A stretch of 64,000 nt of DNA from Escherichia phage V18. The translations under genes and the position numbers were made by a program. Position 1 is the first letter of the stretch. Each line of letters begins with the position of its first letter. The notes under the pieces were generated by a model that made no database searches, was not told the DNA's origin, and saw only the letters and a list, made by a program, of their open reading frames with translations. Shown in pieces: positions 2,354 to 58,509 of the stretch. The stretch lies in sequence record NC_041937.1. The stretch is one strand, 5' to 3'.

Positions 2354-2817
2354 GTGGAAGACGGACGTTTAATGAAGTCTGAACGCAGGCTTATTGTGCA
2401 ACTGATCCCAGAAACAGCTTGGTATAATAACCTCCGAAACGCTGTGAAGGAGAGTGAGTGGGATAAGATCCGCAAGAAGTGCTATAGAGAAGCCAACTAC
2501 ACTTGTGAGGTGTGTGGCGGTAAAGGCAGCAAACACCCAGTGGAGTGTCATGAACTTTACACTTTCGAAGAGGGAGTGATCCGGCTTGTCGGACTGATAG
2601 CGTTGTGCCAGATTGTCACACATCGGTGCATCCTGGGTTAGCAAATATTCGTGGAAAGTATGCTCAGGCAGTTAATCAGTTGGCTAAGGTGAATAAGATC
2701 ACCAAAGGTATGGCAGAGGCGTATTACCGAGACTGCTTTGCAGAGTGGCGTGAGCTTAGTAAAGTTCCAGAGTGGAAGACTGACTTTTCGTGGATAGAGG
2801 GTTACCTTGATGGCTAA
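2354..2817 (+). pseudogene. zinc-binding CxxC...CxxCH (HNH-like) protein with reading frame broken near 2605-2610
   Basis: ORFs 2354-2641 and 2605-2817 overlap in different frames; one extra C in tgcca would give the contiguous motif LIALCPDCH after CEVCGG. Confidence 0.35.
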
Positions 2818-3100
2818 GAGATCTGTAAAAGAGAAATTCGATAAGACAGCTTTTGTATTCGATACACCTCTGGACGATATCATCAGAGGTATGCAAGCCT
2901 TGTATCGGAAGGCTGAATCTGAGCAGTTGTCTGAATCAGAACTTTACTGGCTTGGTTGGTGGGAGTTAAACCTGCCTAAAGCTGAAAGTTCTTGTCTGAG
3001 AACTGTTAAAACGTGCGCCCAAGAAAACGCTGCACTTGGAATCTACCACAAAAGGAAAAGATCAACAAAAAGCTCTCCAAGAAAGACTAAAAAGTCTTGA
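2807..3100 (+). CDS. hypothetical protein
   Basis: 97 aa ORF in operon-like context. Confidence 0.35.
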   Translation: MMAKRSVKEKFDKTAFVFDTPLDDIIRGMQALYRKAESEQLSESELYWLGWWELNLPKAESSCLRTVKTCAQENAALGIYHKRKRSTKSSPRKTKKS

Positions 3101-3126
3101 CAAAAGTGTTATTAATCTGATATTAT
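3097..3126 (+). promoter_or_regulatory. sigma70-like promoter (TTGACA-18-TATTAT)
   Basis: TTGACA at 3097-3102, TATTAT at 3121-3126. Confidence 0.55.
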
Positions 3127-3200
3127 CGGTCAGATATCTATAAACTAGGAGAACTAGATATGCTTAAATTTTTATTGTTGAAGATAAAGATATTGTCCAG

Positions 3201-3467
3201 TTGTATGCAAACGAGAATCATAAAGGTATGATTCTAAAGAAGGCAAGCAACCTTCATGAAAACACAATTCAACCTGGTGATGTAATTAAGATCTGTGGTT
3301 ATATGATACCAGACTCCTTGATGAAAATAACCCACCACTGGGGGTCTAATCCGTTCCTTTTTGAAAAGTATTGGGATGTTGAGTCACTTATTGCAGAGAG
3401 TGATGATGCCTTCCATTGCAGCATCCAACCATCTTGCAGAATAACTAACAGGAGGGTCTTTGAGTAG
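3201..3467 (+). CDS. hypothetical protein
   Basis: 88 aa ORF. Confidence 0.35.
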   Translation: MYANENHKGMILKKASNLHENTIQPGDVIKICGYMIPDSLMKITHHWGSNPFLFEKYWDVESLIAESDDAFHCSIQPSCRITNRRVFE

Positions 3468-56457: not shown

Positions 56458-56515
56458 ATACAGTTCTCCTTAAAGGGGAGGCGGTTGTACTACCCCTCCC
56501 ACTCTTTGTTAAACA

Positions 56516-58222
56516 TTAAAAAGGCGTTTCATCATCCTCAAAACCAGGGACCGGGTCAGAGGATGGATCATCGTACTGGAGGTCTTCCTGCGTGTCAACA
56601 GGCTTAACAGTAGGAGTTACAACCTTATCAGCCACAACCTTGCCCATAGGTGTTTCTACAACTGCATGCTCCTGATCCTCAAACATAGCCTGAGGTCTCC
56701 AAACAACCTCCCCGCCTTCTCCGTCTGTAAACATTTGCATTTCTTTGTCCCAGTACCAATTACTGGCATCATGGAACTTACCTGTGTGCGGGTCCATAAC
56801 CAAAGTGTCAGCAATACCTAGAGTTTTTGCTGGACGGTTTTTAAGACCTACCAGACGGACACGTCCACGAGAACGATCCACCATTTCTTCGGCCTCGACA
56901 CCTATGACTACCCAACTCAACTGTTCAAGCCCAGCCGATCCTCGCAAATTCTCTTTTCGCACAGGATACCAGAAAGGTAACGGGTTACCATCCTTGTCCT
57001 TAGGAGGCACAATCTCTGTACGTTTGAGGTGAGCGATCACCAAGATAAACACATTAAACTGCTTACAAAACGCAGCCAGTTGGGTCATAGCCATGTCCAG
57101 TTCTTTTCGCTCATCCTTAACATTAAGCCCTGAAATTACCATGGACAGGTGATCCAGCACAATATAACGACAATGGTACAGGCAAACCATTTGCTTAAGC
57201 TTGGTAATCAACTCGTCCACCGGAATAGACCCGAAATGTTTGAACACTTTGATTTTTCCAGCTTTTGCCCATGATTGGTGAATCTCTGCGTGTTCTTGAT
57301 CAGTTAAAAACTGGCTAGGATCTTCAACAAACTCTTTAACATCAAACCCTAACTGGTTTGCATACAAGGAGTTAATTGCTTCCTCTGGGTCCTCCTCAAG
57401 ATGGATCATGCATAGACGATCATCCTCTTCATAGTCATCAGCCTTCGGGCATGTCGGGTCCATTAGGTATCTTGCAATACAGTGTTCCAGTTTTTTAGCC
57501 ACGGTTGTTTTACCGCCCCCTGATGGCCCTGTAAGCATTACGAGTGTCCCTTTGTGCAAGCCTTTTAGCATTTTTTGCAGTTTTGGGAACTCTGCGCTGA
57601 TATCTACCCCGTTGGAAGTCTTTTTCCGCAAAGACTCGATAGAGAAGTCTTCTAAATCCGACACAGCATCAGGCACATATTTAACAGGATGCCGGAACAT
57701 GTTGACAATATCTTCCAGCTTTTTAGCCTTCAGCATGTCACGGATATCTTTTACACCGTCAGGATCGTTTACCTCACCGGGGTATTCTACGTGGTAAACG
57801 TTATCAGCCATCAAAAATGCTGCAATATTGTGCGTGGCCTCGACACCTTTAATGACGTGTTTTTGCTTCTCTACCTCGTTAGCTGCATCGTTATCCATTG
57901 CCAGCACAACTGTTCCATAGCTACGGATAAACTTCTCATTGTTTGCAAAAGTATCTACTGCGTTTGCACATCCACAGTTAATTCCAACAAAAGGTAGGCA
58001 AGGTTTTCCTGCCAGATCACCACCGTTGATAACTGCGTCGATCCCGTCCTGGACCTCTTTAGCCCACTGCTTCACCTTTGCCGGGGCTTTAGCGTTGGTG
58101 AGAATCCCTTTTACTTGTATCTGATATGCAGCCTGCCATGCTGCAATAACATCACCTTCTCCCTCACAAACGTTAATCTGCTTACGGTTGTTGGAAGATG
58201 CACACAGCTTTTGACCAAACAT
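56516..58222 (-). CDS. primase-helicase (T7 gp4-like): TOPRIM plus DnaB-family helicase
   Basis: 568 aa; TOPRIM VLAMDNDAANE; Walker A TGPSGGGKT; acidic C-terminus ending EDDETPF. Confidence 0.85.
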   Translation of the reverse strand: MFGQKLCASSNNRKQINVCEGEGDVIAAWQAAYQIQVKGILTNAKAPAKVKQWAKEVQDGIDAVINGGDLAGKPCLPFVGINCGCANAVDTFANNEKFIRSYGTVVLAMDNDAANEVEKQKHVIKGVEATHNIAAFLMADNVYHVEYPGEVNDPDGVKDIRDMLKAKKLEDIVNMFRHPVKYVPDAVSDLEDFSIESLRKKTSNGVDISAEFPKLQKMLKGLHKGTLVMLTGPSGGGKTTVAKKLEHCIARYLMDPTCPKADDYEEDDRLCMIHLEEDPEEAINSLYANQLGFDVKEFVEDPSQFLTDQEHAEIHQSWAKAGKIKVFKHFGSIPVDELITKLKQMVCLYHCRYIVLDHLSMVISGLNVKDERKELDMAMTQLAAFCKQFNVFILVIAHLKRTEIVPPKDKDGNPLPFWYPVRKENLRGSAGLEQLSWVVIGVEAEEMVDRSRGRVRLVGLKNRPAKTLGIADTLVMDPHTGKFHDASNWYWDKEMQMFTDGEGGEVVWRPQAMFEDQEHAVVETPMGKVVADKVVTPTVKPVDTQEDLQYDDPSSDPVPGFEDDETPF

Positions 58223-58239
58223 CTGGGAGTTGGCCTTTA

Positions 58240-58509
58240 CTATGCTACTACAGACCAGTGCCCTTTCTGCTCTTTCGGCTTAGACCAGTCACGCTTTTTG
58301 AAACCAGACAGATTTCCGTAGCGGTCGTAATATGGGAAATATGTTGCAGTGACTGTCACACCGTCTTCTTGGGACAATGCTGATCGCACACCAAAATATT
58401 GTGCAGCCATCAGACCGATATTTTGTTGTGGGACAGGGACAATTTTAGTATTTTCTAAAACAGTCTCTACAGTTTCAACCTCTTTTTCATCACGATAGTC
58501 TCGTTTCAT
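58240..58509 (-). CDS. primase RNA-polymerase-domain N-terminal segment, frame-separated from the primase-helicase
   Basis: RSALSQEDG...YDRYGNLSGFKKRD resembles the T7 gp4 segment YSALTARGIS...YRDQNGNIVSQKVRD; no Cys4 zinc-binding domain. Confidence 0.55.
   Translation of the reverse strand: MKRDYRDEKEVETVETVLENTKIVPVPQQNIGLMAAQYFGVRSALSQEDGVTVTATYFPYYDRYGNLSGFKKRDWSKPKEQKGHWSVVA

Follow-up and report, generated by a model that had tools for sequence, protein, structure and literature searches.

The record of Escherichia phage V18 (NC_041937.1) contains many broken reading frames, and in all likelihood these are mostly errors in the deposited sequence (KY683736) rather than gene loss. We analyzed a stretch of 64,000 nucleotides (nt) from this record (the window; positions below are window positions unless another genome is named) and found about 26 frameshifting insertions or deletions (indels), 23 coding and three non-coding, that are private to V18 and break 20 conserved genes. 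The broken genes appear to have been functional up to the moment of deletion, the deletion process seems blind to coding status, and no other class of mutation is in excess. Such a pattern is exactly what a base-calling or consensus artefact leaves behind, and is unlike real pseudogenization. The original prediction, made from the letters of this stretch, had reported frame breaks and left two options side by side, indel-prone sequencing or assembly on the one hand and active loss of dispensable genes by the phage on the other. The first branch is supported: the indels are private, nearly all deletions, context-specific and not depleted in coding DNA, and they fall in genes that show no excess of non-synonymous or nonsense changes and are under strong purifying selection on the V18 lineage. 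The second branch is not supported.

The window covers a two-armed phage replication and nucleotide-metabolism region, with genes on the plus strand up to ∼32 kb and on the minus strand past ∼34 kb, and over 110 complete genomes of Vequintavirus (rV5-like) coliphages are 95–98% identical to it; in the phage collection searched, which lacks the V18 record, none reaches 99% with full coverage. Its 925-amino-acid (aa) polymerase is exactly identical to V18 protein ASJ80553, a 568-aa ‘DNA primase/helicase’ fragment to the annotated V18 protein ASJ80554, and two phoH fragments to the annotated V18 proteins ASJ80468 and ASJ80469. Two published papers give the V18 accession as KY683736.1. The genome record is 129,454 bp long (taxid 1981500, species Vequintavirus V18) and is a RefSeq genome with YP_ accessions. 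The exact V18 polymerase sequence is absent from every other contig, and no second V18 assembly or raw reads are present in the collections searched.

To place the frame breaks in context, we aligned the window to six GenBank relatives (slur16, rV5_ev168, rV5_ev147, ‘Campylobacter’ phage C12, ECO111 5-P and bov10K2) and listed every gap. We then added 32 more independent loci, taken from ENA metagenome and Logan assemblies and from NCBI genomes and anchored on V18 proteins with exact copies elsewhere, and, for particular genes, the closest GenBank alleles (EmilHeitz, navn and 241Ecol014PP). About 30 small indels set the window apart from all six GenBank relatives simultaneously. Only a handful of indels are common to other phages and represent ordinary polymorphism: a +2 at position 22895 (intergenic), a C-run at 33124 (non-coding) and some indels of 3n length. 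The V18 indel alleles occur in none of the 38 compared genomes; between 7 and 22 genomes are informative per site, and all are undeleted. At the broken loci, gene callers give full-length genes in all further loci compared. Likewise, GenBank phage records that match 61-mers centered on three of the sites never carry the window allele (0/108, 0/64 and 0/108). A scan of IMG/VR with the thyX-like protein returned a best relative of only 88% protein identity, useless for single-base comparison.

The number of broken genes is far above chance. Among 114 conserved open reading frames (ORFs) on the transcription strand, 18 are broken in the window; by the same yardstick the relatives have none (ev168), one (ECO111), three (bov10K2), five (ev147) and six (C12). 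One of the three in bov10K2 is an intron-split nrdD, all five in ev147 are small ORFs, and the C12 record is flagged UNVERIFIED and has a truncated polymerase. The relatives’ own private indels of non-3n length are overwhelmingly non-coding or at ORF ends. The earlier count of at least eight broken genes was therefore true but understated: all eight named breaks (an HNH gene, a methyltransferase-like gene, nrdD three times, phoH, a gene at 42393 and the primase) are real relative to the relatives, at least ten further small conserved genes are broken too, and more than half of the breaks had been missed, as had the coincidence of three of them with intron or homing-endonuclease insertion sites. 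The remark that the longest genes are intact also holds, with lengths that match the relatives (nrdA 771 aa, polymerase 925 aa, a helicase 456 aa and a methylase 441 aa), and comparison with closely related genomes, which had been suggested as a check, finds none that carries V18’s indels.

The private indels share a distinctive signature. Deletions outnumber insertions 25 to one; 21 events are of 1 nt and five of 2 nt (four deletions and the lone insertion), and at least two of the 2-nt deletions consist of two separate single-base losses (TATTTTTTG to TTTTTTT at 7689, and CCCGG to CCG at 41704). Apart from the indel itself, some relative matches the surrounding 81 nt perfectly at 14 of 24 sites. 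Longer homopolymers show steadily higher deletion rates per base (0.00025 in a run of one, 0.003 in a run of six); despite this rise, the majority of deletions lie in runs of two or three bases. The original prediction had several breaks outside homopolymers, which is correct for about a third of the indels; most are in these short runs. Among 19 classified single-base deletions, 12 are contractions of a C-run when oriented by strand, and ten of these 12 have a T directly 3′ (R-CC(C)-T). The change from AGCCT or AGGCT to AGCT occurs four times against an expected 0.08 (P ∼1.6 × 10−6), and the phoH deletion, compared with its closest allele, is a GCCT to GCT change like other events. Private deletions occur once per 2.7 kb window-wide and about once per kb in the densest part. 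Slippery heptamers and long homopolymers are absent from the deletion sites. An origin in methylation motifs was considered and rejected: only two deletions fall inside CCWGG, and Dam or Dcm sites show no consistent association with the events.

Substitutions in the broken genes give no sign of decay. V18-private substitutions in these genes comprise 102 synonymous, 41 non-synonymous and no nonsense changes, a per-site ratio of non-synonymous to synonymous changes (pN/pS) of 0.109; in intact genes the counts are 219, 124 and two, with a pN/pS of 0.154. Pseudogenes are expected to show relaxed purifying selection, whereas pN/pS here is lower in broken than in intact genes. Individual genes show the same strong constraint (e.g., 13 synonymous and no non-synonymous private changes in phoH, 18 and four in nrdD). 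Across V18 the ratio of private non-synonymous to synonymous changes is 0.50, compared with 0.38–0.54 in four relatives; the one nonsense change that V18 has in this comparison lies close to the end of a gene. The abnormality is confined to the indels. Restoring the listed bases alone returns the relatives’ exact ORF length in 19 of 20 genes. The exception is the primase: with the ATG start codon missing as well, its repaired frame comes to 664 of 692 aa. After repair the broken genes hold no further lesions, and the repaired nrdD exons contain no stop codon; a mixture of lesion types (nonsense, insertions, larger deletions) with secondary lesions, as expected of pseudogenes, is lacking. A subset of 23 events divides into 20 coding and three non-coding, as expected from the 87% coding fraction (p = 1.0). 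Finally, in 2018 a patient received V18 at 4 × 10^10 plaque-forming units per mL (pfu/mL), and a pharmacokinetic study published in 2026 titrated the phage by plaque assay. Such a titre is hard to reconcile with a truncated, start-less primase/helicase.

We propose that about 24 of the lesions would be single-base, occasionally two-base, under-calls that survived into the consensus, typically the loss of a C or G from a run of two or three bases before a T. This profile is one that flow-based sequencing (the Personal Genome Machine (PGM) of Ion Torrent, or 454) at modest coverage and without polishing could produce. The remaining three lesions, two in nrdD (16546 and 16843) and one at the primase start (∼58590), may be junction noise from an assembly that dropped, or joined across, multi-copy elements; alternatively, they could be ordinary errors on junctions that are truly element-free. 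We infer this platform and assembly route for V18. Circumstantially, the V18 papers have co-authors from the Obolensk laboratory, which in 2017–18 sequenced its phages on the Ion Torrent PGM with Newbler 2.9 assembly, at ∼31× in one report. With regard to reference-guided assembly as the sole route, the window holds segments that are rare among relatives (1505–1725 and 48725–49263), so it does not simply copy the structure of one reference.

The published error profile of the Ion Torrent PGM resembles that of V18 in several respects. Besides homopolymer miscalls, the PGM produces ‘high frequency indel’ sites at about one per 1–2 kb of reference (Bragg et al. 2013, PMC3623719). These are mostly single-base, with deletions chiefly of C or G, are partly motif-dependent and cause frameshifts in assemblies; a strand-asymmetric subset lies to 82% in homopolymers of length 2–3, and substitution errors are an order of magnitude rarer (PMC3623719). 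V18 similarly shows single-base events at about one per 1–3 kb, mainly C/G deletions and mostly in 2–3-base runs, that are partly motif-dependent and break frames, with substitutions unaffected. Two features differ: the A/T insertions reported for the platform (PMC3623719) are nearly absent in V18, which has one +2 event, and the strong regional clustering seen in V18 is not a described property of these errors.

A second comparison is with UNVERIFIED records of rV5-like ‘Campylobacter phages’ (e.g., C12, MG065635), which belong to the same genus and likewise carry private gene-breaking indels (the C12 polymerase is 809 rather than 925 aa). Unlike these unannotated records, V18 is the RefSeq genome that names its species, and over the same region its broken genes are about three times as numerous. 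About 20 GenBank ‘Campylobacter phage’ records, with C. jejuni listed as host, are rV5-like coliphage genomes 90–97% identical to the window.

Several observations weigh against sequencing error as the origin of the lesions. Of the 23-event subset, 15 fall between 27 and 43 kb, where 5.8 are expected (chi-square p = 5 × 10−5), and only two of its 20 coding events are in genes of at least 900 nt, which make up 34% of the coding DNA (p = 0.015). Both the clustering and the sparing of long genes would also be expected from selection on real mutations, and an artefact needs an extra assumption to account for them, for instance that coverage or quality varied along the sequence or that familiar genes were corrected by hand. 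In addition, the final 10% of genes holds slightly more events than expected (six of ∼26), and some of the gene-end and non-coding events may be genuine lineage-specific indels such as every relative has. A component of real mutation is therefore still alive, but not as the main explanation. Introns are not normally dropped in de novo assembly. Had V18 been assembled in this way, the elements may be truly absent, and the junction lesions would need another explanation.

The three junction lesions stand apart, and nrdD contains two of them. Group I introns and homing-endonuclease genes are found in phage nucleotide-metabolism and replication genes, as in the T4 nrdD/sunY intron. The V18 nrdD (15686–17808, plus strand; 707 aa in relatives) is allelic to those of navn and 241Ecol014PP, with 98.3–98.5% identity over exon 1. 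Both of these alleles contain two intervening sequences, and slur16 and bov10K2 contain the first one. The intervening sequences of navn match the group I family RF00028 of Rfam (E = 2.2 × 10−5 and 5.9 × 10−7), both under the gathering score; at gathering thresholds Rfam has no match in the window or in the navn introns, and group I matches appear only in E-value mode. Both introns have a U before the 5′ splice site and a terminal G, and splicing restores the frame (GGT|...G|CAAACC and GGT|...G|TGTAGA in navn). The second intron of the closest alleles carries an HNH ORF. Unlike these relatives, V18 has neither intron, and no intron-like or endonuclease-like DNA occurs anywhere in the window; only the out-of-frame junctions are present. 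At the intron 1 site (16546..16547) the window is short by 2 nt, reading GGTAACC (GGT|AACC) without the CA of the spliced GGT|CAAACC. At the intron 2 site (16843..16845), which adjoins the 5′ side of the catalytic Cys codon, it has a net gain of 2 nt, reading ATGGG-ATA-TGTAGA for the spliced ATGGGT|TGTAGA. Between the two junctions lies the other nrdD break, a private 1-nt deletion at 16771..16772 (TAYCCTG to TACCTG).

Vequintavirus nrdD exists in at least four states: intron-less, with an ORF-less group I intron of 259 nt, with the same intron containing an HNH ORF (800 nt), and with two introns (loci compared include navn 824–3981, slur16 17122–17921 and 241Ecol014PP). Recoding of the exon flanks accompanies each insertion site and extends to the catalytic-Cys motif; V18 has exons of the two-intron type with no introns. 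Its recoded patch at 16843–16885 still encodes CRSFLSKY..D..TGEEKY around the catalytic cysteine. This patch is the exon flank of intron 2 and is common to 18 GenBank vequintaviruses; the host E. coli nrdD was considered as its donor and gave no match. Just downstream of nrdD some relatives carry a 310-aa DUF723/T5orf172-type putative homing-endonuclease gene (7506–8438 in the metagenomic locus L012, 19156–20088 in L114), another variable mobile element of the region, which is absent from V18.

The third junction is at the primase start. The V18 primase allele is 98.4% identical to that of EmilHeitz, and the sole gap between them is a private 1-nt deletion at 58244..58245 (minus strand; ATGCCTAC to ATGCTAC), near codon 117 of 692, which leaves pieces of 568 and 89 aa. 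In EmilHeitz a 667-nt free-standing homing-endonuclease gene lies between the Dcm-like methyltransferase and primase genes. The corresponding V18 junction (58585..58595, minus strand) lacks this gene of the closest alleles, and the ‘AT’ of the primase ATG is gone. In element-bearing genomes the intron/endonuclease segment is multi-copy, occurring in two or three places per record.

Three readings of these junctions are possible: the elements are present in the phage and were dropped when contigs were joined; they are truly absent and ordinary errors struck the junctions, each of which is then a precise junction plus two single-base errors; or the lesions are genuine scars, left by imprecise loss or by endonuclease cleavage. 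Combined with errors at the ∼24 scattered sites, the last would give V18 a mixed origin, in which two introns and a homing-endonuclease gene were lost imprecisely, or cleavage was repaired imprecisely, and nrdD is a true pseudogene. We consider this unlikely, but it fares best among the alternatives. In its favor, the three lesions lie 0–3 nt from the exact insertion points in navn, 241Ecol014PP and EmilHeitz, the V18 exon flanks have the recoded tracts and the 5′-splice-site T typical of intron-containing alleles, nothing intron-like or endonuclease-like is left in the window, and random errors would rarely strike both nrdD junctions. However, the nrdD junctions can also be written as a precise junction with two single-base errors each (GGT[C]A[A]ACC and GGG+A+T+A+TGT), and the multi-copy intron/endonuclease segment is the type of repeat at which short-read assemblies break and are then joined by hand. 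A start-less primase is improbable in a viable phage, and the nrdD exons, with their excess of synonymous private changes and an open frame once repaired, speak against a pseudogene.

A second alternative, that the deletions are real and recent and that the V18 lineage or its laboratory stock has been inactivating dispensable accessory genes by −1 frameshifts, appears quite improbable. Like true pseudogene accumulation or genome reduction, V18 has many conserved genes frameshifted and large core genes spared. The events cluster in the small-gene early region (27–43 kb), with a mild excess at gene 3′ ends, and nrdA, nrdB, the polymerase, ligase, helicases and thyX escape. Most of the broken genes are either plausibly accessory genes without a known function or one of nrdD, phoH, an HNH gene and a methyltransferase gene. 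As for essential genes, nrdA, the polymerase and helicases are intact, yet the primase/helicase is both frameshifted and start-less in a phage that reached 4 × 10^10 pfu/mL. Unlike accumulating pseudogenes, the V18 genes combine a pN/pS of 0.11 with no nonsense change, mostly one lesion per gene, no second lesion after repair and no lesion shared with other genomes. The 25:1 deletion bias and the recurrence of the AGCCT change are unexpected from ordinary mutation followed by drift, the substitution spectrum is normal, and the events show no depletion in coding DNA. All 7–22 genomes compared per site have these genes intact, and hence the genes are maintained by selection in nature.

The gene-loss alternative draws further support from phoH in a metagenomic vequintavirus, L012 (137,975-bp ENA contig, ERZ27290372 k141_1044056), which has its own 1-nt phoH deletion and shows that a split phoH can arise in an independent assembly. 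In V18, phoH carries a private 1-nt deletion at 19251..19252 (plus strand; TGCCTATG in the closest allele, 241Ecol014PP, and TGCTATG in the window) that replaces the 262-aa protein by pieces of 121 and 151 aa. The L012 gene (9639–10426, equivalent to window positions 19022–19809) is split in the same way, into 121 and 141 aa, with a four-base overlap between the stop of its first piece and the start of the second. We considered whether the break is an allele common to both phages and rejected this by base-level comparison: the lesions differ and lie 2 nt apart. Relatives read GCATATGC at this site, L012 GCATTGC and V18 GCTATGC; both deletions are inside this palindrome, directly after the Walker A motif. 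Of the 23 differences between the V18 and L012 phoH sequences, 21 are synonymous in the original frame, indicating that the two alleles had diverged well before either shift arose. The neighboring deletions may reflect a hotspot, a tolerated split or chance. The match is a coincidence worth noting, and is not evidence for a real event in V18.

Two further explanations invoke the recurrent sequence context. The deletions could be real products of a sequence-specific process that removes one C at R-CC(C)-T and leaves small scars at intron and homing-endonuclease sites, which we regard as very improbable; if true, a phage in clinical use would withstand having about 20 conserved accessory genes inactivated at once, together with an N-terminally truncated primase. 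That the frameshifts are real but bypassed by programmed ribosomal frameshifting or transcriptional slippage at R-CC-T sites can hardly be credited, despite the recurrent R-CC(C)-T motif and the four created AGCT sites, since slippery heptamers and long homopolymers are lacking, all relatives encode each gene in a single frame, three events are non-coding and some are of 2 nt.

The other lesions in the plus-strand arm begin with the HNH endonuclease gene, where a private 1-nt deletion at 2609..2610 (CCC to CC) yields ORFs at 2354–2641 and 2605–2817 (95 and 70 aa) in place of 154 aa. A conserved 102-aa gene (PHROG 14449) has lost one base near its start at 3168..3169 (AAAA to AAA). The methyltransferase-like gene has a net loss of 2 nt at 7683..7690, an A and a G (TATTTTTTGC in relatives, TTTTTTTC in the window), and is divided into 151 and 152 aa compared with 272 aa. 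Private 1-nt deletions also break a conserved 87-aa gene at 27630..27631 (AGCCTT to AGCTT), a conserved 110-aa gene at 27894..27895 (TAGTCTA to TAGCTA), another conserved 87-aa gene at 29959..29960 (ACCCTT to ACCTT) and the last 5% of a 99-aa gene at 31556..31557 (AGCCCT to AGCCT). The three non-coding events are private 1-nt deletions at 33040..33041 (TTTT to TTT), 34009..34010 and 38233..38234 (AGCCTT to AGCTT).

Minus-strand genes contain the remainder. Single private 1-nt deletions affect a 90-aa gene at 35780..35781 (CGCCTC to CGCTC in plus-strand letters), the C-terminal ends of a 94-aa gene at 36406..36407 and of a 66-aa gene at 38707..38708, a 126/138-aa gene at 39882..39883, the 113-aa gene that the original prediction placed at 42393 (42506..42507, CCAGGCT to CCAGCT), a 56-aa gene at 47068..47069 (TTTTT to TTTT) and a conserved 129-aa gene at 51707..51708 (AGCCTT to AGCTT). 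A conserved 207-aa gene carries two within 40435..40559, one after 40435 (CCAGGT to CCAGT) and one after 40559 (CGCCAT to CGCAT). Private 2-nt deletions occur in a 117/123-aa gene at 41704..41705 (GCCCGGA to GCCGA, one C and one G) and at the C-terminal end of a 63-aa gene at 46525..46526.

The window also shows larger structural differences from its relatives. Three sharp V18-private deletions, of 805 nt (23180|23181), 144 nt (24705|24706) and 211 nt (25216|25219), eliminate or fuse small conserved genes that every relative compared at these places retains. No convincing microhomology was found at the three; at the 805-nt junction two near-identical 10-mers adjoin (CCTCTATGGG / CCTTTATGGG). 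These deletions could be real or assembly drop-outs. Where the two divergently transcribed arms meet (32700–34600), a segment of ∼2 kb has no long ORFs; it varies strongly, all relatives differing by many indels, and is the start point of several relatives’ records. A non-coding poly-C tract of ∼16 bases at 38102–38118 differs in length in every relative compared. In some relatives the polymerase is a 1132-aa ORF without a recorded Pfam hit (13426–16824 in the loci L122 and L126) or a two-piece join (EmilHeitz, positions 1–778 of the locus L097), which suggests an intein or intron; the V18 polymerase is the plain 925-aa form.

The record as a whole has ∼283 loci in 129 kb, counted from its locus tags and reverse-numbered RefSeq gene product (gp) numbers, compared with 212–233 annotated features in relatives of 136–140 kb. 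This surplus is consistent with split genes throughout the record, beyond the window.

No new biology is indicated by these breaks, and the practical point is one of data quality. The species Vequintavirus V18 is represented by KY683736 and its RefSeq copy, and the phage that they describe has been used in patients. The record appears to contain about 25 frameshift errors in this 64-kb half alone, and two nrdD introns and a homing-endonuclease gene are possibly missing from it as well. Inferences drawn from the ‘split phoH’, the ‘truncated primase’, the ‘nrdD pseudogene’ fragments or the short 129-kb genome are accordingly doubtful. More generally, the combination used here (privacy of the indels, ORF repair, lineage-specific pN/pS, the coding to non-coding ratio and context bias) provides a read-free recipe for telling assembly indels from pseudogenes. 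For V18, the apparent errors make conclusions on gene content, pangenome, species demarcation and safety unreliable until the phage is re-sequenced.

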